In this document: positions 4,775 to 34,942 of the stretch, piece by piece
How positions within the stretch are numbered: the stretch's first letter is position 1
Layout: each line of letters opens with the position of its first letter
NCBI GenBank assembly: GCA_044347615.1
Contig: JBIKUK010000001.1
Span: 299,863 to 363,862 of the forward strand
From: Bdellovibrionota bacterium
GTDB taxonomy: Bacteria > Bdellovibrionota > UBA2428
DNA: 64,000 nt
Direction: 5' to 3'
Made by a program: the position numbers and the translations under genes
The notes under the pieces: model-generated
The model's database searches: none
What the model was told of the DNA's origin: nothing
Seen by the model: the letters and a program-made list of their open reading frames with translations, nothing else

Positions 4775-4848
4775 TGGAGGCGGCACCCGGATTTGAACCG
4801 GGGGTGAAGCTTTTGCAGAGCCTTGCCTTACCACTTGGCTATGCCGCC
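4775..4848 (-). tRNA. tRNA-Cys (anticodon GCA), CCA encoded
   Basis: Minus strand reads GGCGGCA-TA-GCC..GGC-A-AGGCT-CTGCAAA-AGCTT-CACC-CCCGG-TTCAAAT-CCGGG-TGCCGCC-T-CCA: 7-bp acceptor stem, 5-bp anticodon stem with GCA at positions 34-36, T-arm with TTCAAAT loop. Confidence 0.9.
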
Positions 4849-22620: not shown

Positions 22621-23931
22621 TTATGGACTTAATCTATAGAGCATTCTTGGGAAGGGGATACATTCTCTGACGTGTTCCACTCCGCAAATCCAAGCTGTAA
22701 GACGCTCAATTCCTAGTCCAAATCCTGCACTGGGGCTTGAACCGTAGCGACGAAGATCGAGATACCATTCGAAAACTTTGGGATCGAGTCCATGCTCGTT
22801 GATTTTTTTAAGCAGCACTTCGATGTTTTCTTCACGTTGTCCTCCTCCAATGATTTCTCCATAGCCTTCGGGCGCTAAAAGGTCCATGGAGCATGTGTAT
22901 TGTGGATCGCAAGGATCTTCTTTCATGTAAAAGGCTTTGATCGCAGTTGGAAAACCATGAACGAAAACAGGCTTATCAAATTTTGATGCAAGGATTGTCT
23001 CATCTCCACCACCAAAATCCATTCCCTTTTTGAAATTATCTTTACTTTCCTTTTCAAGAATTTCCGCAGCTTCTTTGTAGTGAATTCGAGGAAAGGGTGG
23101 AACGATTTTTTCAAGTACTGCAGGATCACGTTCTAAGTCCTGAAGTTCACGCTTTCTGTTTTTCAAGACACTTTGAACGATATGACCAATCATATCTTCG
23201 GCAAGTTTCATGTCTCCTTCTAGATCCATGAAAGCCACTTCTGGCTCGAGCATCCAAAACTCCGTGAGGTGTCGACGGGTTTTCGATTTCTCTGCTCGAA
23301 AAGTGGGGCCAAAAACGTAAACTTTCCCAAAGGCCTTAGCTCCAGCTTCACCGTAGAGTTGTCCGCTTTGAGTGAGATAAGCTTTGGCATCATCAAAATA
23401 ATTCACTTCAAAAAGGTTGGTGGTTCCTTCGCACGCGTTGGGAGTAAAAATGGGAGCGTCAAAGCAAACAAATCCACGCTCATCAAAAAAATTTCGAGCC
23501 GCATGAATAATTTCAGAGCGAATTCTTAGGGTCGCGTGTTGGCGCTTTGACCGAATCCAAAGGTGCCGATGGTCTTGTAAAAAAGCAGGACCATGTTCTT
23601 TGGGGGTGATGGGATAGTCTTTAGCTTCGCTTACAATTGATAAGCTCACTCCACTGATTTCAAATCCGCCAGGTGCTTTGGGAGCAGAAGCAACTTTTCC
23701 TTTGATGGTCACAGATGTTTCTTGAGTGAGCTTGTCGAAATTAAGAAAACTTTCTTCTTCGCAGCCGCCTTTAAAAAAAACGCATTGAATCGTTCCTGTT
23801 CCATCGCGCAGCATAAGAAATTTTACTTTGCCGCTTGATCGAGAATTGTAAACCCAGCCATTAAGCGTAATGTCTTCGCCTGCGGGAATTTTTCCTTTGA
23901 AAATATCTTCAACGTAGAGTGTAGGATTCAT
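22621..23931 (-). CDS. asnS: asparagine--tRNA ligase
   Basis: 436 aa class II aaRS; [21 protein letters not shown] and [15 protein letters not shown] motifs; length fits AsnRS rather than AspRS. Confidence 0.88.
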
Positions 23932-24021: not shown

Positions 24022-24246
24022 ATGGGGGCCCCTAAATTTATAGCTAAACTTTTGTTTTTTTTGCTTGTTTTGACTTTGATTGGTCAGCTGCGATGGAACG
24101 GAATCAGTCTTGAGAATTATTATCACAAGGCAGTCAATTCAGAAAACTTTCAGGCGGGATGGGCGTCGTTAACGGCTCCTTTTAAATGGGTGGGAGGTCG
24201 TTTCGGCCTTTCAAAAGAAACAAGTCGACCTGAATCTGCTCGTTAA
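24022..24246 (+). CDS. hypothetical small membrane protein
   Basis: 74-aa ORF with one hydrophobic helix (LLFFLLVLTLIG), divergent from asnS; no other support. Confidence 0.25.
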   Translation: MGAPKFIAKLLFFLLVLTLIGQLRWNGISLENYYHKAVNSENFQAGWASLTAPFKWVGGRFGLSKETSRPESAR

Positions 24247-24248
24247 TC

Positions 24249-24635
24249 TTAGTGCGAGGGAACTTGTCCGGGAGCGTTGATCACGCCCATAGAGCCTGCA
24301 CTCATGACTTGTCTTTGATATAAGTTTTTAAAGTTTGCACAGCTCATATCTTCTTTTTCTTTTCCTTCAAGAATCAAAGCAGCGCATCGACAATTAATAA
24401 TAGAGGCTTCGTTAGAAGCATTTTCTCCGATAAAAGGTGCGGGGCTACCATAAGAGGGAGCTCCTCCATAACCGTACATAGGTTGAAATTGAGGTTGAGC
24501 AAGTCCCTGTCCATAGAAGGCAGGCATACCTTGAGGGAATCCACCGTATGACTGGGCATGGCTTATATTTGAAATACAAAAACCAAAAATTCCGAATATT
24601 GTTAATAAAAATCGAGAAGAGGTTAAATTTTGCAT
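24249..24635 (-). CDS. small secreted protein, Gly/Tyr/Pro/Gln-rich
   Basis: 128 aa; N-terminal signal peptide (LLTIFGIFGFCISNISHAQ) then low-complexity GGFPQGMPAFYGQG...YGYGGAPSYG segment and a Cys-containing C-terminus. Confidence 0.5.
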   Translation of the reverse strand: MQNLTSSRFLLTIFGIFGFCISNISHAQSYGGFPQGMPAFYGQGLAQPQFQPMYGYGGAPSYGSPAPFIGENASNEASIINCRCAALILEGKEKEDMSCANFKNLYQRQVMSAGSMGVINAPGQVPSH

Positions 24636-24680
24636 TCATACAAGGAGTTGCATGAAATATGCCGTGATTTTGACTCTCAA

Positions 24681-24707
24681 AGAGCTCTTTAGCCAAATCA
24701 GAGCTCT
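24681..24707. promoter_or_regulatory. pair of AGAGCTCT palindromes in a divergent promoter region (candidate operator)
   Basis: caaAGAGCTCTttagccaaatcAGAGCTCTtcaaag: two identical 8-bp palindromes 19 bp centre to centre, between the divergent secreted-protein gene and the YD-repeat gene. Confidence 0.25.
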
Positions 24708-24808
24708 TCAAAGTGTCTAATGTTTGGACAATTGTTAAGAGCGACTTAATTTTTTTTTGACACTTTATGAAGAAGCTTTCTCGTTAAACTCGAAGCATGG
24801 AGCGGAAG

Positions 24809-26419
24809 ATGGCAAAGCACGCTGCTTTTAAAGCATTTCTTTTAACTTTATTCGTGGGAACCTTTCAAAAGACTCATGCAGGAGTCAACGTGAACAATGG
24901 TAATTTTTATATTACCTATACGGATTTTGCGATTTTTACTCCTGGTTTACCCATTGAGGTCTCTCGAACTTACAATAGCCGCTCAAGTTATATCGCTGGA
25001 AAGTTTGGAGTGGGTTGGTCAAGCGAGCTTGATTCTTACTTGAAATTTGAAAACAAAGATGTTGTTTATTTCGAGGGTGGTGGGGGAAATGTTCTTCGTT
25101 TTACTCCAAAGAATGAAAGCCTTTGGGAAAATAATCAGCTAGGAACTCAAAACGTTAAAAAAGTTATTAAAGATAAGGTTACCTCTTTTCAGCTGCAAAC
25201 AAATGTTGGAAAATCTTATACTTTTAACTCTTCAGGGCAGTTGATTAAAATTCAAGATGGAAACAAAAACTATATTGAACTTTCTTATGAAAAAAGCGCT
25301 TTTTCAAAAATTAAAGACAATTTTAATAACCAAGTTATTGTAAGTGTTGAAGATGTCGCTGGCTTTGTTCGCGTGAAGTCTCTTAAGTCAGGAGATAGAA
25401 AAGCTAGCTACGAGTATAACAAGAATGGAGACATGATCACGGCTGTGACCATGGATGGTGCCCGTTATGTTTATAGCTACGACGATCAGCACAACATGAC
25501 AAAAGTTTCTTATTCTAATGGAACAAGCAAGACAATGGAGTACAACAAAGTTCGTGATTGGATCACAGCTTTCAAGGATATAGACGGATCATCAATTAAG
25601 TACGATTACTTCACGGATACTCTTGATCCAGAAAATCGTTTCGGAACAATTGTTTCACGAAAAGATAGCACAGGAAAAGAAGAGGTTGCGCGTTATTGGT
25701 ATGAGTTTCGTAAGCGTAAAGACCTTTCTCGTTACGCTTATCGAACGGTATCATCCTTTAATGATCAAGCGACGGAGACATTGTTAACGGAATGTTGTGG
25801 AACTCCAATTACAATCACTCAGTGGAGCATTTCAGAAGTTAGTAACCCTACAAAAAACTTAGCTTGGACGCAGCCTGTTGGAAAAAAATCTTCCACAAGC
25901 TTTGAGTATTACGCTGATGGAACATTGAAAAGAAAAACTCTTTCTAATGGATCAGTAATCAGTTTGGCCTATGATTCTTCTAACAAGAAAATTACCAAGC
26001 TTGAAAAAGATGGTAATAAAATTGAGTATTCATATGATGGAAGACAGAATCTAGCATCTGCAAAAGATCATTCTGAAAAACTAAAAATGGATTTTACGTA
26101 TGATGTTCAAGGAAGAATTACAATTGTAAAAGAAACTCCATTGAAAGGTGCTTCTGGTGAGAGAAGCTTGTACTTTAAGTACAATTCAGATGGGTTGCCA
26201 GTTGAAGTTAAAGAGAGAAACTACGATGGCAAAGTCGCACTTATTAAAATGACTTATTTTCCAAATGGTCAAATTAAAGAGGTTTTAAATTCTAGTGGGC
26301 GTACAATTGCTTCACAGGGTGATCTCAATGTGACTCAAAGAATTTATTCAACCTTTCAACGAGTGCTTGAGGTTATTCAGCCTACAGGAGTGAGTCTCAA
26401 TGCGGAAGGAACCATTTAA
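24809..26419 (+). CDS. secreted YD-repeat (Rhs-family repeat) protein, short form without recognisable toxin domain
   Basis: Signal peptide MAKHAAFKAFLLTLFVGTFQKTHAG (second ATG at 24809 has GGAG upstream; track start is 24797); repeated YD units (YEYNKNGDMITAV, YVYSYDDQHNMTKV, IEYSYDGRQN, FTYDVQGRITIV, LYFKYNSDGLPVEV). Confidence 0.7.
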   Translation: MAKHAAFKAFLLTLFVGTFQKTHAGVNVNNGNFYITYTDFAIFTPGLPIEVSRTYNSRSSYIAGKFGVGWSSELDSYLKFENKDVVYFEGGGGNVLRFTPKNESLWENNQLGTQNVKKVIKDKVTSFQLQTNVGKSYTFNSSGQLIKIQDGNKNYIELSYEKSAFSKIKDNFNNQVIVSVEDVAGFVRVKSLKSGDRKASYEYNKNGDMITAVTMDGARYVYSYDDQHNMTKVSYSNGTSKTMEYNKVRDWITAFKDIDGSSIKYDYFTDTLDPENRFGTIVSRKDSTGKEEVARYWYEFRKRKDLSRYAYRTVSSFNDQATETLLTECCGTPITITQWSISEVSNPTKNLAWTQPVGKKSSTSFEYYADGTLKRKTLSNGSVISLAYDSSNKKITKLEKDGNKIEYSYDGRQNLASAKDHSEKLKMDFTYDVQGRITIVKETPLKGASGERSLYFKYNSDGLPVEVKERNYDGKVALIKMTYFPNGQIKEVLNSSGRTIASQGDLNVTQRIYSTFQRVLEVIQPTGVSLNAEGTI

Positions 26420-26423
26420 TTTT

Positions 26424-26726
26424 ATGAAAAAAACATTTTCTTTAGTTCTTGGGTTCTCTTTTTTCGTTTTTTCTAATTTTGCTCAAGCACAATTTGGACA
26501 ACCGCCTATGTTCATGGATGCTCAAGCTTCCCAAATGCAAATGGGACAAATGCAAATGATGGGGCAGGGAGGAATGCCTCCGGGTTTTGTAGGACAAGTT
26601 CCAGGTAGTTATAACGATGCTCAATGTTTGAATGCAGCTATGATGATGCCTCAGGCTCCCTTGACCCCAGCTTACTATAATCAACAACAGCAGCAGCTTA
26701 TGAATGGACACCAGCAGGGTTTTTAA
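26424..26726 (+). CDS. small secreted protein, Gln/Met/Gly/Pro-rich
   Basis: ATG at 26424 gives MKKTFSLVLGFSFFVFSNFAQAQ signal peptide, then MQMGQMQMMGQGGMPPGF...NQQQQQLMNGHQQGF; the track start at 26400 overlaps the upstream gene. Confidence 0.5.
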   Translation: MKKTFSLVLGFSFFVFSNFAQAQFGQPPMFMDAQASQMQMGQMQMMGQGGMPPGFVGQVPGSYNDAQCLNAAMMMPQAPLTPAYYNQQQQQLMNGHQQGF

Positions 26727-27586
26727 ACTTCGATTTGAACCATTTTATTAATCAAGAAAAGTCCAATTGCTACTAGAGTAAGTGCGATTAAAATAATGAT
26801 AAACCCGGGAATGGTTGTGAAAAGCGGTCGTGTAAGTTCAGGATCAATCGCATACATCATGCCCGCTACGCCAAACGGAACGCAGCCAACAATAATGCCT
26901 GCTGTGCGACCTTGAGCAGTGAGAGCATTAATTTTATTTTGAAGCTTTGAGCGTTCTCGAATCGTTTTGACGATTGTATCGAAAGTTTCGGCCATGTTAC
27001 CGCCGGTTTCACGCAAGATATTTACACTAGTTGCAAAAATGTAGATTTCTTCAGTCTTGATTCTTTTTGCTAAGTTTTCAAAACCTGCTTCAAGAGGAAC
27101 CCCGATTCTGTTTTGATCTAGAACAAGTCCAAATTCTTGACTTACAGGTGCGGGCATTTCATCAACAACAATCTGCAGTGTTTGAGGAACGTTTAGGCCA
27201 GAACGTAAGCCGTTCGCCATCAAGGTCAGTGCGTCGATCATTTGTGCCGTAAATTCTGTAACTCGTTTTTTTCTAATAATCGATGATGCATATATTTTGG
27301 GTAGGCGCATCCCCCAGAAAAAAAGAAAGACCCCAAAAATAATTCCTAGTGTTTTGTTGGGAAAAATAAAAATTACAAAGAGAGTTGTACTAAATCCCCA
27401 AATAAGAATTTCTTTGAGAACTTCCTTTTCTGTTTTAAGTTTGAAAATATCTTCATATTCAGTTTTAAGCTCATCCCGATTTTTTAAAATTTTTTTGTTC
27501 CAAACAAAATCTTCCCAAAAGCTATAAGGAAGGTAGGCAGCTAAGAAAAAACAAATCCCTGCGCCAATGATGACAAGAATATTCAT
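26723..27586 (-). CDS. Flp pilus assembly inner-membrane platform protein (TadB/TadC family)
   Basis: 287 aa polytopic membrane protein with a central cytoplasmic domain, adjacent to the CpaF gene in the Tad locus. Confidence 0.75.
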   Translation of the reverse strand: MNILVIIGAGICFFLAAYLPYSFWEDFVWNKKILKNRDELKTEYEDIFKLKTEKEVLKEILIWGFSTTLFVIFIFPNKTLGIIFGVFLFFWGMRLPKIYASSIIRKKRVTEFTAQMIDALTLMANGLRSGLNVPQTLQIVVDEMPAPVSQEFGLVLDQNRIGVPLEAGFENLAKRIKTEEIYIFATSVNILRETGGNMAETFDTIVKTIRERSKLQNKINALTAQGRTAGIIVGCVPFGVAGMMYAIDPELTRPLFTTIPGFIIILIALTLVAIGLFLINKMVQIEV

Positions 27587-27602: not shown

Positions 27603-29774
27603 TTAAGCCGCCTTGAAAAGACCTCGAGGAATCTTGATCCCGTGAGATTCTATTTTTTCTACGAATTTGGGAATGAATCCTGTCGCAACGTGTTTTCCTA
27701 TGACTTTTCTATCTTTGTCTTGTCCAGTTTGTTTGAATAGAAAGATATCTTGAGTTGTTATGACTTCACCTTGCATACCGCATACTTCTGTTATGTGAGT
27801 GATTTTTCTAGATCCATCTGAAAGACGTGATTGCTGAACAATTAAGTGAACAGCGCTGGAAATTTGTTCTCGAATAGCTTTTGCAGGTAAATCCATTCCT
27901 GCCATTAAGACAAGTGTTTCGATACGTGTGAGGGCATCGCGAGGGTTGTTGGCGTGAACTGTCGCCATAGAACCATCGTGACCTGTATTCATCGCTTGTA
28001 GCATGTCGAGGGCCTCTCCTCCCCGGACCTCACCGACGATGATCCGATCGGGTTTCATTCGAAGAGTTTGTTTGACAAGGTCACGAATAGTAATTGCTCC
28101 CGTACCTTCTATGTTTGCAGGACGAGTTTCAAGGCGACCAACGTGTTCTTGAACGAGAGAAAGTTCAGCAGCGTCTTCAACGGTGAGAATACGTTCTGTT
28201 GAGGGAATGAAGCTACTCAATATATTGAGACAAGTTGTTTTACCGGAGCCCGTGCCTCCTGAAATCACCACGTTCAGTCGAGCTTCGATACATGTTCGTA
28301 AAAAATCAGAAATTTCTGGGGTAATAGAACCAAATTTAATTAAATCTTCTGGGCCTAGTCTTTTTTCAGGAAATTTACGTATTGTGATCATTGGTCCATC
28401 GATCGCAAGAGGAGGAATGATTGCGTGAACACGGCTACCGTCTGCAAGTCGAGCGTCAACATAGGGTGTTTTTTCGTCGATTCTTCTTCCAAGTGGATTA
28501 ACAATTCTCTCGATAGCTGCCATGACTTGTACATTGCTTGAAAAAACCACAGGACTTTTCATGTTTTTCCCGCCTTTTTCAAGGTAAATAAGATCAGCGC
28601 GATTGACCATGATTTCACTAACTGTTCGATCTGCAATCAGATCTTCTAAGGGGCCAAGTCCGAGAGCCTCATCAAGAACTTCTTTTACGAGTTTTGAGCT
28701 ATCTTCACGACTCTTCCAGGGATGATCTTCTTTACCAACAATTTCCGTAATAATTTTCATCGCCTTATCTCGAAGCTCCATTTTTTTGGCTTCGTCTAAC
28801 TGGCGGTTAAGTTGTTCCTTTTTTAAATCCATTTTTTCTACAAGTTGTTCATGAATTAAAAGTTTGAAACGACTTCGAGGATCTTGCGGCTCTTTTCCAA
28901 AGCTTGATCGATTACTCGATTTTTTTGATGTGGTATTTTCCGGTGTTTTTTCAGAAGGAGGAGGTGTGGCGGGTTTTGCTCTTTTATAGGCAGAAAGCTT
29001 TTCTAAAATTTTTCCTTCTATGAGTTGTCGACCTAGTTGAATAAGAGCTTTTGTTGTGCCCGATCCAGTTGCAAGGGTGACCATAGGTTGGCCTTTTATG
29101 AGTGCGGTTCTCGCTAGATCGGTTTCTTCGGGAATAGAGCAGACGACTTGACGCTTTAGTGTTTGTTCCAAAAAAGCTGGGTTGTAGGGATTGTTGGGAG
29201 TCATTTTGTTCAGAATGATTTTGACGAATTCTTGAGGAAATAAAAGAGTTTGAATTTTTTCTAAAACTTTTTTTGTTTGATTGAGGACAAGAATTTCGGG
29301 GTTGCTCACAACAAGAATAATTGAGGAGTGTTCAAGTATTTTGATAATACTTCCATCAATTCGAGATCCGCAATCTACGACGGTGATGGGAAATGAACTT
29401 TTGATTGATCGCATGGCGCCGTCCATTTTTTCATCAGTGACATCAATAAGTCTTTCAAGGTTCTGAAGAAGTTGAAGAGAGTGGAGTTGGCTCGAAGCTC
29501 CGCCTAAATTGACTTGAGTCATTATTTTTTTGAGCGAGTCGCCACTTCTTATTTTTCCTTCTATCAGATCATTTCCAAATCCTTTGATTTCTTTATTTCC
29601 AAAAATAAGATTCAAGTCACCAGATCCTTGCATATCAGCATCGATTACGGCGACAGGGATTTTTCGATCAAGGCAAATAGAGAGAGCAAAGTTTCCCGCA
29701 AAAACAGACTTTCCAACTCCGCCTTTACCTCCAACGACTGCAATGATGTGTCCTGAGTTTAGGGGTGCGTTCAT
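27603..29774 (-). CDS. fused CpaE/TadZ-like ParA-type domain + CpaF/TadA secretion ATPase
   Basis: 723 aa; N-terminal deviant Walker [15 protein letters not shown] (ParA/MinD/CpaE-like), Pro/Ser/Thr-rich linker, then CpaF-type ATPase with Walker [14 protein letters not shown] and downstream TVEDAAEL...[11 protein letters not shown] motifs. Confidence 0.85.
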
Positions 29775-29775
29775 T

Positions 29776-31524
29776 TTATCTCCTCAGCCTAAATTTACGT
29801 TTTAAGCTTTCTGTTCCCGCTCCGGGAGTTTGAATAGTTGTGGGCGTGACAAAGATAATCATTTGATTTTTTGTGTCTTGAAGTTCATGATTTTTTGAAA
29901 ATTTAAAAAGAGAAATATCATTTGTTGTGGAATTTGGAGGATCTCTTCCTAGTGATACTTGTCTTCGCTCCGAGATAAGGCCTCCTATAGCGGCGCTTTC
30001 TTCATTTGAAACAACAAGTTGAGTTTTGATAGCATACTCTAGGCTACCTGGGGGGGCGTCGGGGGCGGGTTTGTCTTGAATTTCTGCTTGAGTAGCGTTG
30101 ATACTGATTAGAATTTTATCTGTCGTTCTAATGGAGACTGCGGCAAGAGATATATTTGTTTTAATATCTGCAAAAGCCCATGAAGGAGGATTGTTTGCGT
30201 TTCCTGGAATAAAATAGGGAACTTTTAAAACTTCAGCAATTGTAGATTCAGGACCTGGGTTACCGTCTGCTCCATCTTTCACGATAAGCGTCGCAGATTT
30301 TAAAACTCGAGCGTGACCATTTCTGGAGAGTGTTTCAAGAGTGGGAAAGAAACCGCTTAACGTCGCTTGAAACGAGCCAATAAATTTACTGATATCACTG
30401 GAGTAGCTGTAACTTGAATTTGTTGTAATACCTGGGGCCCATTTAAAATTGAAGGCTTTTATGTAGTTACGTACCAGACTGACAAAGTCTACTCGAATGC
30501 TCAAGTCTTTTTCAGGTTCTCCAGCTTGAGCGGGTCTTATACGAACACGAAGCATACACTCGGGCAGGTCTTTAAAGATAGATTCTTTTACGAGTTTGGA
30601 TTCAAGCTTGAATTGATCTTGAATCATAGCTTGGCAAGTTTGAACTGCTACGTCGCGTTCAATTTTTTTATCGACAGCACCTTCCAAAATAAATCGACCA
30701 TTTAGGACTCGAACATAAATATTTGTAGGTTTATCTCTGCCACCGTTAATTTCATCCTGCATTTTTTCTGCTATGTACTGCAAGGCGAGAGGTGAAACTT
30801 CGGCGAGGAGTTCAATAGGTTTTCCTGCAGTTTTATACCCATCATAAACAGTCATGACACGTCTAAGGTCTTTGGGCACAACAATTTGTCCGTCAATAAC
30901 AATGCGATCGCCAATGAGGCGCATTTCAAGACCTTCAATTTTTCCCATTTTTGCTTTTATTTGCTGTAAGAGAACAATCAGATCTTCGTCTGTGACGGTT
31001 ACACGAAAAACTTTAAAAAGCTTTTTCCCGGGAAGCGCTTTTTTGCTTTCGGGGTCAGTTATTTTGTCGTAGGCAAGTATTTGAGTGGTCATAGTTTGCC
31101 CAGTCGTAACAATAGTTGCCCTTTTGGGGGGAAAGCCAGGTTGAAGCATACTCTCTCTATCAAATTTTACAATTCCAGGAATTGTGATTCCCCAGTAAAC
31201 GTCTTTCACGTCTTTTATTTCTGGAACGTCTTCAAGAGAAATAGTGGTGCCTGTTTTTGCATTTGGATTTTTTTTGTTGAGCCCTATGTAAACTTCTTCA
31301 AAGCCATAAATAGGATTTAGTTGATCTCGATTTTTTAGAATTGTTTCTAAATCTGAATCTGCTATTTCGCCTACGAGTTGGGTTTTAGGAATGGTGCTTT
31401 CATTGGCTACAGAGTTTTCTTGGGTAAAGGATGTCTTTGAAGTAAAAACTAAAAGAAATAAAAAAAAGGTTTTTATTAGTTGATGTTTATTCAAAGACGC
31501 CTCCTCCGGATTCAAGTGGGTCAC
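29776..31524 (-). CDS. Flp pilus secretin (CpaC/RcpA family)
   Basis: 582 aa; C-terminal secretin-type region (AAIGGLISERRQ...MIIFVTPTTI); more likely start is TTG at about 31494 (GGAGG upstream, MNKHQLIKTFFLFLLVF signal peptide) rather than the track GTG at 31524. Confidence 0.8.
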   Translation of the reverse strand: MTHLNPEEASLNKHQLIKTFFLFLLVFTSKTSFTQENSVANESTIPKTQLVGEIADSDLETILKNRDQLNPIYGFEEVYIGLNKKNPNAKTGTTISLEDVPEIKDVKDVYWGITIPGIVKFDRESMLQPGFPPKRATIVTTGQTMTTQILAYDKITDPESKKALPGKKLFKVFRVTVTDEDLIVLLQQIKAKMGKIEGLEMRLIGDRIVIDGQIVVPKDLRRVMTVYDGYKTAGKPIELLAEVSPLALQYIAEKMQDEINGGRDKPTNIYVRVLNGRFILEGAVDKKIERDVAVQTCQAMIQDQFKLESKLVKESIFKDLPECMLRVRIRPAQAGEPEKDLSIRVDFVSLVRNYIKAFNFKWAPGITTNSSYSYSSDISKFIGSFQATLSGFFPTLETLSRNGHARVLKSATLIVKDGADGNPGPESTIAEVLKVPYFIPGNANNPPSWAFADIKTNISLAAVSIRTTDKILISINATQAEIQDKPAPDAPPGSLEYAIKTQLVVSNEESAAIGGLISERRQVSLGRDPPNSTTNDISLFKFSKNHELQDTKNQMIIFVTPTTIQTPGAGTESLKRKFRLRR

Positions 31525-32431
31525 TTGCAGGTTTTCTTACGGGGGCAGCGCCCTCAGCTGTGTTGTTCTTAGCAGCGGCGGCAGCAGCAGCGGCAGCTGC
31601 GGCTTGTCGCGCTTCTTCAATTATTCTTTTTTGCTCTCGATCTCGAGCTTCCGCTCGTTTCGAGTCGGGCCCAAGAACTTCATCAAGAGTTGTTGATCCT
31701 ATGTTTGTTTCGGCGCGATCGATGGGGTTTCTCAGTGTAAGGTAAAGATCGGTGCCTTGGGCGAGTGCGTAAATTAAAATTTGAGATTGTTCTGGCGTTA
31801 CTTCTACGGTGACTGTGTTGAAGTTTTTTTCCCCTCTCGCGCTTACTGCTATTTTTCTTTGATTGAGTGGATCGTTTTCATAACGCGTGGGAATGTTATT
31901 CTGGATAATTTCTCCAGCAGCTAAAATCGTAATATTTTGTAAAAGTGTTTTGAGTTCAGTTTGTTTTGATCCATCTGGGTTTGGGTAGCTAACGCTTCCA
32001 ATAATATCCACATGGTCACCAGGCTTAATAAGTTTAGAGACACCTGTATTATCATTTACAGGAATAGACATGGCTCTTTTTGAAGCAGAAACTTGGACCG
32101 CAAGACCTGTCTCAGCGCTTTTGGGTGAGAGTTTTGTCAAAAGTATTTGCTCACCTTCTTTAATGGGTACAAGAGCTACCATGTCTTTAATATCTTTAAA
32201 GTCGCTAAGGGCTCCTGGCTGAATAAATTTGTCGAACTGACTTTCTTGAGTCACCATCGTTTCATCAAGGACTTGCATTTCATTAATATTTCTTGAGGCA
32301 ATCAAAACGGTTGAAGGCTTGCCAAATTTTTCTTTGCTTTCTTGGTCTTGGCTGTATACGTAAAGACCAACAAGAGCCATGCCTAGTAAAGCAAAAGCAA
32401 AACTTACAAAAAAAGCACGCGACTGGTTCAA
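31487..32431 (-). CDS. Flp pilus assembly protein CpaB/RcpC, with C-terminal poly-Ala tract
   Basis: 314 aa; N-terminal membrane anchor, SAF-like region, position between tadE-like genes and the secretin; poly-Ala run near the C-terminus. Confidence 0.75.
   Translation of the reverse strand: MNQSRAFFVSFAFALLGMALVGLYVYSQDQESKEKFGKPSTVLIASRNINEMQVLDETMVTQESQFDKFIQPGALSDFKDIKDMVALVPIKEGEQILLTKLSPKSAETGLAVQVSASKRAMSIPVNDNTGVSKLIKPGDHVDIIGSVSYPNPDGSKQTELKTLLQNITILAAGEIIQNNIPTRYENDPLNQRKIAVSARGEKNFNTVTVEVTPEQSQILIYALAQGTDLYLTLRNPIDRAETNIGSTTLDEVLGPDSKRAEARDREQKRIIEEARQAAAAAAAAAAAKNNTAEGAAPVRKPASDPLESGGGVFE
31572..31603 (-). repeat. (GCN)n trinucleotide tract encoding 11 consecutive Ala in CpaB
   Basis: gcagcggcggcagcagcagcggcagctgcggc on the plus strand; a GC-rich simple repeat inside an otherwise AT-rich gene. 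Confidence 0.6.
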
Positions 32432-32489: not shown

Positions 32490-32915
32490 TTACTCACAAG
32501 CATCTATGCTTCCGGGACGTCTAAAAACTGTCATTTTATGAATTCGTTGAAGGCCCATATCAACGCCAAGAATACTTGGTAATTTGAATAAGTTGGGTCC
32601 GTCGGTTGAAAGTTGGGGTGTAGCAGAAAAACATGTTTTAGAATTGTCCACGATAATATTTTGAGATCCAGACATAGGAAATTCATAAAGATTTTGAGCT
32701 CCAGATCTATTTGCTCTAGAGACAAGAGGGCCAGAATTAGAGATTTTTGCAAAAGCTGCGTTGCGGGCTGCTTCTTGAAGAAGCGTCGATTCTCGAAGTC
32801 CTATAAAGAAAACAGTACTTACAATTAGAATGACAATAAATAGCAAGACTGCTGGGAGAAACTCAATCATGGCCTGGCCTTTATTGTTTTTGAAACGACT
32901 AATTTTTTTTAACAT
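32490..32915 (-). CDS. TadE/TadG-like pseudopilin
   Basis: 141 aa; N-terminal GQAMIEFLPAVLLFIVIL motif (G-x4-E-F/Y prepilin-like processing site plus hydrophobic helix). Confidence 0.65.
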   Translation of the reverse strand: MLKKISRFKNNKGQAMIEFLPAVLLFIVILIVSTVFFIGLRESTLLQEAARNAAFAKISNSGPLVSRANRSGAQNLYEFPMSGSQNIIVDNSKTCFSATPQLSTDGPNLFKLPSILGVDMGLQRIHKMTVFRRPGSIDACE

Positions 32916-33481
32916 CCATTATCCTCCATGCCTTCCCAGCTATGAAGTGAGTTTCCGCCTCTGAAAAATTTAGAAAAAAATTCTTGAAAAAAAACTTGGC
33001 ATTCTTTTTTAGTTGGCTCACGTCCAAGATTACTTTGAGTAGAAAGATTGAGCGTACCAAATGTTTTTTTTAAATCTTGACCAAGAGGAACCGTTATCAA
33101 GGGCACTTCAAATTCTAAGCGAAAAGGGGTTCTAACGTTACCCGAATTTACGGAGGGAGTGCTAAAATTAGTAATGGTTGCAAGTTTTCTTTTTGAGGAA
33201 AAACCAAAAGGAGTTGAGCCTGATCCAGGGCTTACGTTTGGAACGTAAATTTTCATGGTTCTCGTTGCAGCCTCAAGCTGGGAATTGGGATCGTCCCGGC
33301 TTGCTTGATAAGCACGAGCCGACATAAAAGTTGCGTAACTTAAATATTGGTAAACTGCAAAAGAAACAACAGCATTGTAACTTAAAGAAAGAAAAAAAAT
33401 AAAAGCAATAAAAACAAATATGAATTCGACTGTGCCTTGTCCCTCTTTTTTATGAAATTTAACTTTCATAATTTTTTTCAT
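32909..33481 (-). CDS. TadE/TadF-like pseudopilin
   Basis: 190 aa; N-terminal GQGTVEFIFVFIAFIFFL motif; start overlaps the flp1 stop. Confidence 0.65.
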   Translation of the reverse strand: MKKIMKVKFHKKEGQGTVEFIFVFIAFIFFLSLSYNAVVSFAVYQYLSYATFMSARAYQASRDDPNSQLEAATRTMKIYVPNVSPGSGSTPFGFSSKRKLATITNFSTPSVNSGNVRTPFRLEFEVPLITVPLGQDLKKTFGTLNLSTQSNLGREPTKKECQVFFQEFFSKFFRGGNSLHSWEGMEDNGC

Positions 33482-33696
33482 TTAGTTTTGAACTCCATCT
33501 TGTTGTAGTAGGCCTCTGCGGGTTTTCCAGCGGTGGCGGAATCTTTTTCGACCTTGTCTTTGAAGGTTTCAAGGGGTTTTTTCATCTTTTGTTTAAGAAG
33601 TGTGTATGCGACAAGTGCCATTCCAACAATGGCTGCAATGACAAGTATATATTCCACAACAACTTGTCCTTTGCGGAGATTTTTTTTCTTTTTCAT
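33478..33696 (-). CDS. flp: Flp-family type IVb pilin (copy 1)
   Basis: 72 aa; KG-QVVVEYILVIAAIVGMALVA: Flp prepilin motif G/xxxxEY followed by a hydrophobic helix. Confidence 0.75.
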   Translation of the reverse strand: MKKKKNLRKGQVVVEYILVIAAIVGMALVAYTLLKQKMKKPLETFKDKVEKDSATAGKPAEAYYNKMEFKTK

Positions 33697-33714
33697 AAAA
33701 TAAAATTTAGTCGC

Positions 33715-33897
33715 TTATTTGCACTCACTGTTTTTATTATTAGAAGAAATACAATCAGTTGTTTTTGTTTTTAACCTACTCATGGAATCTCGAAAAACAT
33801 CATTAACTATGAATTTTACAACAACCACAGTTGTTACCGCTACCAGTAAAGATAGAAGTATGTATTCGACAAGCACTTGACCGTTTTTAAATTTCAT
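33715..33897 (-). CDS. flp: Flp-family type IVb pilin (copy 2)
   Basis: 60 aa; NG-QVLVEYILLSLLVAVTTVVV. Confidence 0.7.
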   Translation of the reverse strand: MKFKNGQVLVEYILLSLLVAVTTVVVVKFIVNDVFRDSMSRLKTKTTDCISSNNKNSECK

Positions 33898-33929
33898 AGC
33901 TCACATCCTATTTAGCTAAGATTTTAGTT

Positions 33930-34109
33930 TATTTGTCTGAGGAAAGCGTGCCTACACTACCATCAACACTTTTGAAGACGCTATCAACAGTTCCGCCGAT
34001 TTTACCTTTTATCGTTTTACCGAAAATCATGACGAAGCCAACCATGACAGCGAGGATGAGAATCCACTCTAATGTACCTTGACCGCTTTTTTTTGAGTTG
34101 TTTTTCATT
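33930..34109 (-). CDS. Flp-like pilin (copy 3), 59 aa, not in the ORF track
   Basis: Own translation: MKNNSKKSGQGTLEWILILAVMVGFVMIFGKTIKGKIGGTVDSVFKSVDGSVGTLSSDK; AGGAG 7 nt upstream of the ATG at 34109; G-x4-E-W variant of the Flp motif. Confidence 0.6.
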
Positions 34110-34177: not shown

Positions 34178-34942
34178 TTAAGAAGCACGTTTTTGAATAG
34201 TTTTTGACTTTTTAGTGATTTCGGTTTCAGAGGATGTGCTTTCAGAAAAGTTTTCACCTACAAATACAACTTTAAATGTATTGATCCAAATTTTTAAATC
34301 AAGTGATAGGGAGAGGTCTCGGACGTATTTACAATCTAGGGTTGCTTTTTCATCTGGATCATTAAGATTTGTTTTTAAAGCTTGCCAATATCCAGACATT
34401 CCAGGGCGTACAGCAAATCTTTCAACATGGGATTCGGTCATGTGAAGGTTTTCTTCAATAATGTAAGGCCTTGGTCCCAAGAGAAGCATGTCTCCTTTAA
34501 CAACATTTATTAGCTGAGGAATTTCATCAATTTTCCATTTTCTAAGAAAACGACCAAGTTCTCCTTCGACTCTTGGATCATTTTCTATTTTTTTTAGAGG
34601 GGTAAATCCCATTTCTATAACTTTAGGAGATCCGGTTTTTAAAGTTCTAAATTTATAAACATAAAAAATGGTTCCATTTTTTCCAACTCGTTTTTGCTTA
34701 TGGAATACTTTACCGCCTTTGAGTGTTTTTATAAGAATTGCGATCATCCCCAAGAATGGACTTAGTAAGGTTAGTAAAAGGGTTGCGAGAAGTGTTTCAA
34801 GGATAATTTTGAATTTGTAATAAATTGGAAGTTTTTTTTGAATTGAGAATATTTTATTTTGAAATTTTATAAAATCTGAAATTGGTAGGGCAGGCACTAC
34901 TTTTTTTTCATTATCTCTTAAGAAATTGGTTTCATGGGTCAC
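34178..34942 (-). CDS. bacterial sugar transferase (polyprenyl-phosphate hexose-1-phosphate transferase, WbaP/ExoY-like)
   Basis: 254 aa; TM helix then KFRTLKTGSP...DEIPQLINVVKGDMLLLGPRP motif typical of the bacterial sugar transferase family. Confidence 0.8.
   Translation of the reverse strand: MTHETNFLRDNEKKVVPALPISDFIKFQNKIFSIQKKLPIYYKFKIILETLLATLLLTLLSPFLGMIAILIKTLKGGKVFHKQKRVGKNGTIFYVYKFRTLKTGSPKVIEMGFTPLKKIENDPRVEGELGRFLRKWKIDEIPQLINVVKGDMLLLGPRPYIIEENLHMTESHVERFAVRPGMSGYWQALKTNLNDPDEKATLDCKYVRDLSLSLDLKIWINTFKVVFVGENFSESTSSETEITKKSKTIQKRAS

Follow-up and report, generated by a model that had tools for sequence, protein, structure and literature searches.

A probable hit (host-interaction) locus with an inverted Bd0109-like gene in an uncultured freshwater Bacteriovoracaceae predator

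Introduction

The hit (host-interaction) locus of Bdellovibrio bacteriovorus encodes two secreted proteins, Bd0108 and Bd0109. Bd0109 is a 62.5-kDa RHS-repeat protein whose gene adjoins TadB (bd0110) and TadA (bd0111), and Bd0108 is an intrinsically disordered protein of 101 amino acids (aa) with a CxxC disulfide that binds Bd0109; mutations in Bd0108 lead to host-independent growth and altered piliation (PMC3818213, PMC4267844, PMC5430801). Bd0109 appears to be essential (PMC3818213, PMC4267844) and was originally annotated as a 'cell wall-associated protein precursor'. A report of 2012 described the hit locus as conserved in Bacteriovorax marinus (PMC3526173), Halobacteriovorax marinus SJ carries the Bd0109 homologue BMS_0182 with two small secreted neighbours, BMS_0183 and BMS_0184 (PMC4267844), and a metagenomic study of 2023 reported arrays of two to three short secreted genes beside Bd0109 homologues in Bdellovibrionales bins (PMC10469934). 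Here we analyse a 64-kb stretch of contig JBIKUK010000001.1 (the window), which belongs to an uncultured freshwater Bacteriovoracaceae predator. It carries a cassette of three genes, one for a protein with YD repeats (the YD protein) and two for small secreted proteins, S108 and S128. A preliminary description of this DNA found the architecture not assignable to any described system; full-length homology to Bd0109 and the synteny of about 90 loci overturn that view, and we consider it likely that the cassette represents the Bdellovibrio hit locus in its Bacteriovoracaceae form, with a Bd0109 orthologue and small secreted proteins at the Bd0108 position.

Results

The YD protein is homologous to Bd0109 over its full length

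A homology search with the YD protein returned about 93 homologues of roughly 490–570 aa, nearly all of them 527–568 aa long, with identities down to 25%, and all homologues bearing names came from Bdellovibrionota or Bacteriovorax. An exhaustive profile search added dozens of single-domain representatives of 540–570 aa amid giant Rhs proteins. Searching from one such representative gave 744 proteins at E <= 1e-10, and the best 120 of these 744 are 537–568 aa long, many of them from Bdellovibrio. Judged by sequence, the YD protein is a member of a length-conserved family (about 530–570 aa) present throughout the Bdellovibrionota.

Bd0109 itself was not reached by two word-indexed homology searches, one with the protein and one with a profile of 15 sequences. 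It was found by screening the N-termini of the representatives from the exhaustive search for AFA-LV and then searching again from that relative. We take the homologue P0367 (UniRef Q68VD7, 'rhs family', B. bacteriovorus, 551 aa) to be Bd0109 because its N-terminus (...SAQAFA/LV) reproduces the published AFA-LV cleavage site. BLASTP aligned residues 12–534 of the YD protein with residues 4–549 of P0367 (E 4e-44, 25% identity), and this alignment takes in the motifs RTYNSRS and FGxGW of the N-domain as well as the C-terminal helix. The supplement of Avidan 2017 lists BMS_0182 and M899_018[5] as Bd0109 orthologues (PMC5430801). M899_0185 corresponds to homologue P0087, which is 31% identical to the YD protein of the window.

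Both proteins are secreted and about 540–550 aa long, with a DUF6531 N-domain, around 13 YD/YE repeats and the C-terminal helix motif STF..L..I.P, and both are encoded at the distal end of a Tad/Flp cluster beside a TadB-like gene with small secreted proteins next to them. They differ in about 50 residues that are inserted behind the N-domain of Bd0109, in their cysteines (four scattered ones in Bd0109, a vicinal pair in the window family) and in the orientation of the window gene, which is inverted relative to the Tad operon. We assign the YD protein as the putative orthologue of Bd0109 on the basis of full-length homology, with conserved synteny favouring orthology over paralogy.

The domain layout of the YD protein comprises a signal peptide, a plug-like DUF6531 N-domain, some 12 YD hairpin repeats and, at the C-terminus, a helix. 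Pfam matched DUF6531 at residues 30–96 (E 7e-16) and RHS_repeat (E 5e-16). With 13 YD, YE or YN dipeptides the protein holds about 10–13 repeat units, so that the YD repeats proposed in the preliminary description are borne out by profile hidden Markov models (HMMs) while its count of at least five has to be raised. The same description had noted that the Rhs core, a toxin and an immunity gene are lacking and that the locus is not of the canonical Rhs toxin type, which agrees with our results: Pfam gave no match to the Rhs core PF03527, the NCBIfam model RHS_core reached 46 bits against a cut-off of 2000 in a partial match to model positions 531–671, and neither a DPxG[LW]/DPxGL autoprotease motif nor, with Pfam, any adhesin domain was found in the protein. 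An AlphaFold2 (AF2) model built with 68 homologues was confident, with a mean predicted local distance difference test score (pLDDT) of 89.1 and a predicted template modelling score of 0.76. It consists entirely of beta-hairpins with about 40 strands, followed by a C-terminal helix at residues 507–527.

A profile search of PDB sequences returned RhsA 7q97 as the best match (E 6e-42, covering the plug and the first part of the shell), followed by teneurins. Type VI secretion system (T6SS) Rhs effectors, Tc toxin BC components and WapA share with the YD protein the YD/RHS repeats that form a shell and the N-terminal plug. Compared to the cocoons of T6SS Rhs effectors (RhsA 7q97; 8qja/8qjb), Tc toxin BC and teneurins, however, the YD protein covers only about 40%. 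In contrast to the T6SS and Tc BC proteins it comes without Rhs core or aspartyl autoprotease, without toxin or immunity gene, and without a PAAR/VgrG or TcA partner. Linkage to a delivery system, be it VgrG/PAAR/T6SS, TcA or a CDI-like export signal, as in T6SS Rhs, Tc BC and WapA proteins, was not found; the neighbours are Tad genes, asparaginyl-tRNA synthetase (AsnRS), an M3 peptidase and citrate synthase.

Signal peptides of all three cassette proteins were called by heuristics for n-, h- and c-regions. Secretion of the central protein, as predicted before, is supported by readable n-, h- and c-regions and by a conserved mature N-terminus, GVN(V/L)(N/K)NGNFY, which in dozens of homologues starts right where the hydrophobic segment ends. 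The only cysteines of the YD protein are the vicinal pair C333-C334 (TECCGTP; codons 25793-25798), which is at least 90% conserved in the Bacteriovoracia family and absent from Bd0109. A profile of the YD protein run over the whole window detected only this one YD protein.

Linkage to the Tad operon and inversion of the YD-S108 unit

We compared about 90 loci from genome and metagenome collections. The YD gene adjoins a TadB-like gene in about 85 of them; where a TadB-like gene could be identified (85 loci), the YD gene lies immediately 3' of it and in the same direction in about 80. Loci with this usual orientation include B. bacteriovorus (L088), the Bdellovibrio sp. strains KM01 and HCB337, Bacteriovorax sp. 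BSW11_IV and Peredibacter. The gene order RcpC-secretin-CpaE/F-TadB, YD gene, small open reading frames (ORFs) is found in L001-L005 and L010-L092, including B. bacteriovorus. Since the order TadB, YD gene, small secreted ORF corresponds to the Bd0109-Bd0108 layout, it supports the assignment to the hit locus. Synteny in related genomes bears out both the cassette and its Tad linkage.

The YD gene is convergent with the Tad operon only in the window and in its four closest relatives, L006-L009, which are 88–96% identical and derive from independent metagenome-assembled genome projects. In the nearest clades with the usual orientation (L001/L011, L010, L002/L003 and L017) the order is TadB>, YD>, small-A> (one Cys), small-B> (CxC...C), <S74, AsnRS>, where S74 is a further small gene, and we take this arrangement as the ancestral order. 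In the window the order is TadB>, <S108, <YD, S128>, <S74, AsnRS>. Comparison of both orders therefore indicates that S128 kept its orientation and that the two-gene unit of YD gene and S108 was inverted. At the breakpoints of the inversion only short inverted repeats at chance level were detected. In the sister clade (64–68% identity) additional genes for non-secreted proteins separate TadB from the YD gene and the two small genes from each other (Table 1), so that not only the inversion of the window but also insertions are tolerated in this region.

Small secreted proteins at the Bd0108 position

S108 follows the YD gene directly. Its product carries a signal peptide ending in NFAQA, followed by a Gln/Met/Gly/Pro-rich low-complexity region (mature composition Q 23%, M 15%, G 13%, P 10%) with a single Cys. 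The S128 protein has a signal peptide ending in ISHA, a Gly/Pro/Gln/Tyr-rich region, the motif NCRCAALILEGKEKEDMSC (CxC-x16-C) and a low-complexity tail; in its mature form it is rich in Gly, Ala, Gln, Ser, Pro and Tyr and holds three Cys, a fourth being located in the signal peptide. The composition of both proteins suggests that they are disordered. S108 orthologues are present in L006-L009 and S128 orthologues in L007-L009, and proteins with a CxC...C pattern are encoded between the YD gene and the S74 and AsnRS genes in L001/L011, L010, L002/L003 and L017.

The picture of two small secreted low-complexity ORFs bracketing the YD gene, drawn in the preliminary description, thus stands: they are conserved in relatives (orthologues in L006-L009) and under purifying selection. 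Two of its details need qualification. One or two Cys had been given for the flanking ORFs, which is right for S108 and too low for S128. Their 'same build' holds as far as a signal peptide followed by low complexity goes, but once signal peptides are removed the S108-type and S128-type proteins show no significant profile similarity to each other (hhalign E 0.2). Weak HMM cross-hits among small proteins with their signal peptides retained were discarded, as they are explained by the signal peptides.

To the census of small ORFs we admitted ORFs of 45–150 aa whose N-terminus resembles a signal peptide and which contain at least one Cys, in the 87 loci with enough downstream sequence; signal peptides were called by a home-made heuristic, and some loci duplicate one contig. 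Such an ORF with signal peptide and at least one Cys starts within 135 nucleotides (nt) of the YD stop codon in 85 of the 87 loci, and two or more are found in 63 of 79. As background, 95 of all 602 long ORFs in these loci were followed by a small ORF of this kind, or about 10 of 515 (2%) when the YD cases are subtracted.

The type of small protein varies between clades. The first small protein of Bdellovibrio-type loci carries a CxxC or a similar pair of Cys (GCKECEARLKRIR in L088), and the second has one Cys just past the signal peptide. Bacteriovorax-type loci usually encode a first protein with four Cys including CxxC, followed by one or two single-Cys proteins of 55–65 aa; many of these loci encode exactly two single-Cys small secreted proteins. 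The order in the window, single-Cys protein followed by CxC...C protein, is the reverse of that in most Bacteriovorax loci. The Gln/Met/Gly-rich composition is limited to the clade of the window, whereas the equivalents in other clades are short, charged and Ser/Thr/Lys-rich. H. marinus SJ and the Bdellovibrionales bins resemble the window in having a Bd0109 homologue with two to three signal-peptide neighbours that lack clear homology to Bd0108. The window differs from them in representing a freshwater clade, which is about 30% identical to the marine clade (here Bacteriovorax sp. BSW11_IV), in its longer, Gln/Met/Gly-rich small proteins and in the inverted YD-S108 unit.

In relation to Bd0108, S108 is likewise the first gene after the YD gene, probably starting 5 nt past its stop codon, and both S108 and S128 share with Bd0108 the signal peptide, a low-complexity or disordered region, conserved Cys, a size of about 100 aa and fast evolution. 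They differ in composition, being Gln/Met/Gly/Pro/Tyr-rich, whereas the proteins examined at the Bd0108 position are Gly/Ser/Thr/Asn/Asp/Glu-rich. Recent reviews still call bd0108 unique to a Bdellovibrio subgroup, and one preprint states that Bd0108 is missing from Bdellovibrio sp. KM01. At the Bd0108 position of KM01 (L089 4666-4938) we found a 90-aa protein with a signal peptide and CVNC. The 'absence' of Bd0108 in comparative studies may in part be a failure of homology detection.

Translation starts and purifying selection

The three cassette ORFs and the 74-aa S74 ORF are all present at the coordinates in Table 1. The sequence context indicates that translation of the YD gene probably starts at ATG 24809, giving 536 aa, because GGAG is found upstream and close homologues are 536 aa long. 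Likewise, S108 probably starts at ATG 26424, giving 100 aa, because the conserved start MKKTFSL is located there, 5 nt past the YD stop codon and identically placed in L009; the 20-nt overlap between the YD gene and S108 is therefore probably not real.

All three cassette ORFs are real genes and not chance ORFs, since they have orthologues in the independent assemblies L006-L009 and are under purifying selection. The ratio of nonsynonymous to synonymous substitution rates (dN/dS) is 0.04–0.05 for the YD protein against its closest relatives, 0.12–0.13 for S128 and 0.15–0.32 for S108, values that are approximate as dS was saturated in several comparisons. For the small proteins the rate of evolution is three to four times that of the YD protein (dN about 0.25 versus 0.07).

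The intergenic region between the divergent genes

The region between S128 and the YD gene shows a mean identity of 89% among the window and L007-L009, with long invariant blocks such as GTTGCATGAAATATGCCGTGATTTTGACTCTCA and CAATTGTTAAGAGCGACTTAATTTTTTTTTGACACTTT, while dS of the flanking genes in the same set exceeds 1 and is saturated. High intergenic identity despite saturated flanking dS suggests conserved regulatory elements, and from this pattern the region is probably a divergent promoter/operator region for S128 and the inverted YD-S108 unit. Rfam detected no RNA family in it. A consensus scan for promoters and terminators yielded no more matches than shuffled sequence did, and the region shows no sigma-70 consensus that would be convincing.

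Genes surrounding the cassette

The minus-strand cluster to the right of the cassette is a complete Tad/Flp pilus cluster (Table 1). Its last gene, encoding the TadB-like platform protein, ends with its stop codon abutting that of S108. The fusion of CpaE and CpaF was found in most of the Bdellovibrionota loci examined, including B. bacteriovorus; L001 has separate genes. The two pseudopilin candidates have no Pfam match and were assigned from their motif. Three TAD-associated flp genes are known from Bacteriovorax and Halobacteriovorax (PMC5430801), which matches the three in the window. Directly upstream of the Flp pilin genes lies a sugar transferase gene, and glycosylation may be tied to the pilus cluster.

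To the left of the cassette, S74 marks the fixed edge of the hit-locus region next to the AsnRS gene. Its homologues were found in 11 loci reaching distant relatives, always divergent from AsnRS, its dN/dS of 0.01–0.07 points to very strong purifying selection, and it matches no Pfam or NCBIfam family. Further neighbours are the M3 peptidase gene (left) and citrate synthase. Within about 5 kb to the left and about 10 kb to the right, none of the neighbours was identified as a T6SS, PAAR or VgrG gene. A single tRNA gene is the only match at gathering level to Rfam in the window.

Table 1. Features of the window and inserted genes of the sister clade (positions refer to the window unless a locus is named)
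Feature	Position	Strand	Size	Evidence or remark
tRNA gene	4778-4848	-		Rfam
AsnRS gene, left neighbour	22621-23931			
S74, small membrane or secreted protein	24022-24246	+	74 aa	one hydrophobic N-terminal helix
S128, small secreted protein gene	24249-24635	-	128 aa	second small gene of ancestral array
S128/YD intergenic region	24636-24796		160 nt	between divergent genes
YD-repeat protein gene	24797-26419	+	540 aa as listed	
S108, small secreted protein gene	26400-26726	+	108 aa as listed	directly 3' of YD gene
TadB/TadC-like inner-membrane platform protein	26723-27586	-		Pfam T2SSF, E 8e-18; last Tad/Flp gene
CpaE/TadZ-CpaF/TadA fusion ATPase	27603-29774	-	723 aa	Pfam CbiA/AAA_31 (N-terminal), T2SSE (residues 371-648)
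Secretin, RcpA/CpaC type	29776-31524	-		Pfam Secretin
RcpC/CpaB	31487-32431	-		Pfam RcpC + SAF
Two TadE/TadF-like pseudopilin candidates	32490-33481	-	141, 190 aa	G-Q-(A/G)-x-x-E-F N-terminal motif + hydrophobic segment
Three Flp-type pilin genes	33478-34108	-	72, 60, 59 aa	G-Q-x-x-x-E-(Y/W) + hydrophobic stretch
Sugar transferase gene	34178-34942	-		Bac_transf, E 2e-51
Inserted gene, sister clade	L001 5509-5823	-		
Inserted gene, sister clade	L001 7946-9247	-		
Inserted gene, sister clade	L010 7493-7774	-		

Discussion

Homology, fold, synteny with the Kil-like Tad genes, purifying selection and a near-universal pairing of YD protein and small secreted proteins are established for the cassette. 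The arrangement is already in the literature, so that the cassette adds to the described hit system and does not constitute a new kind of system. Specific to this lineage are the YD-S108 inversion, the Gln/Met/Gly/Pro-rich small proteins and the conserved vicinal Cys pair.

By orthology, export of the cassette proteins, their binding and a regulatory role would be expected to resemble those of the Bdellovibrio proteins. The YD protein would be exported by Sec as a DUF6531 plug-like domain with about 40% of an Rhs/YD cocoon shut by the C-terminal helix, lacking autoprotease and toxin, and the two small genes would supply fast-evolving, Sec-exported low-complexity proteins with conserved Cys. 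By analogy with B. bacteriovorus the YD half-shell would bind one or both of the small disordered proteins in the periplasm or at the envelope, the complex, depending on whether it is bound or free, would modulate how the pilus is extruded and retracted, and this modulation would in turn set the decision to pass from attack phase to growth phase. In the window lineage the inverted YD-S108 pair would be transcribed convergently with the Tad operon from the divergent promoter region shared with S128.

Several observations weigh against assigning the cassette to the hit locus. Identity of the YD protein to Bd0109 is just 25%, Bd0109 does not have the conserved vicinal Cys pair, and HD100 has four further RHS proteins besides Bd0109 (bd0328, bd1292, bd2719 and bd3309). 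Profiles of the mature regions link neither S108 nor S128 to Bd0108-type proteins (drawn from L088-L092) or to the small proteins of other clades: cross-hits with hmmsearch had E >= 0.004, none of them involving the window proteins at E < 0.3, and hhalign gave E >= 0.08 with probabilities below 1%. The equivalence of S108 and S128 to Bd0108 is therefore positional and architectural only. The CxxC of Bd0108 is found in neither protein, S108 having one Cys and S128 a CxC...C pattern. Through the inversion the YD gene is no longer coupled to the Tad operon, so that co-regulation cannot be assumed. Finally, even for Bd0109 and Bd0108 the literature has yet to settle the mechanism (PMC12428579).

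The same genes could instead form a cargo or chaperone device of the Kil-like predatory Tad pilus, that is an effector or tip-loading module and not a signalling switch, in which the YD half-shell encapsulates or chaperones the small disordered proteins and hands them to the pilus machine or secretin for display on the pilus or delivery to prey. Rhs/YD shells, which the YD protein matches in fold, are encapsulation devices, the Tad operon ends with the YD gene in about 80 loci, and the small proteins evolve as fast (dN about 0.25 versus 0.07) as prey-facing factors would. Prehna 2014 proposed that Bd0109 encapsulates Bd0108 and perhaps delivers it to pili, and pili of the Kil type mediate contact-dependent killing (PMC12075869). 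This is a reasonable explanation which overlaps with the hit-locus switch, but we regard it as rather unlikely, because a shell of about 40% of a cocoon without autoprotease or release mechanism fits poorly and because loss of Bd0108 in Bdellovibrio results in a growth-switch phenotype and not in a simple predation defect. An adhesin or matrix module, as considered in the preliminary description, with a WapA-like surface YD protein that binds carbohydrate or cell wall and matrix- or amyloid-like small proteins, the whole unconnected to the pilus in function, would account for the composition of S108 and S128, which is like that of prion-like or matrix low-complexity proteins, and it would suit the first annotation of Bd0109 as a cell-wall-associated protein and the transcriptional separation of the unit from the Tad genes in the window lineage. 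Yet the Gln/Met/Gly-rich composition is confined to the clade of the window, the YD protein has no adhesin domains, and the near-invariant Tad linkage across the phylum argues for a pilus-related role, which makes such a module very improbable.

That the cassette is a degenerate or truncated Rhs toxin locus with spurious small ORFs or remnants of immunity genes, the other suggestion made at the outset, could be derived from the RHS repeats and the DUF6531 domain in common with T6SS Rhs effectors together with the absence of core and toxin. A decaying gene is hard to reconcile with a length and architecture that stay constant (527–570 aa) over hundreds of homologues down to 25% identity, with dN/dS of 0.05 for the YD gene and 0.12–0.32 for the small genes, with a confident and complete AF2 model (pLDDT 89) that includes a dedicated C-terminal helix, and with surroundings in which no T6SS, PAAR or VgrG was identified within about 5 kb to the left and 10 kb to the right. 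We consider this explanation effectively refuted.

Beyond the assignment to the hit locus we put forward, tentatively and with considerable doubt, that a YD half-shell and at least two small Cys-bearing disordered proteins form one ancient module tied to the predatory Kil-like Tad pilus throughout the phylum and not a 'hit' gene peculiar to Bdellovibrio, a module whose partners are recognised by structure and cysteine chemistry and not by sequence. The vicinal Cys pair and the presence of two single-Cys small proteins in many Bacteriovorax-type loci raise the idea of disulfide tethering; as an example of cysteine-based recognition, C333-C334 could form disulfides with single-Cys small proteins. 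If such a module existed, a prey-dependence switch of the Bd0108 type would be general to all these predators, and Bd0108 would seem 'absent' from many genomes because its homologues escape detection.

The hit locus with Bd0108 and Bd0109 is the sole genetic handle on the decision between attack and growth in obligate bacterial predators. Across both major Bdellovibrionota lineages about 90 loci show a YD protein paired with small secreted proteins, and the comparison provides constraints for work on the switch: invariant YD residues, conserved Cys patterns of the small proteins, the obligatory Tad linkage and the tolerance of inversion. For the uncultured freshwater Bacteriovoracaceae it explains three genes that had been 'hypothetical'.

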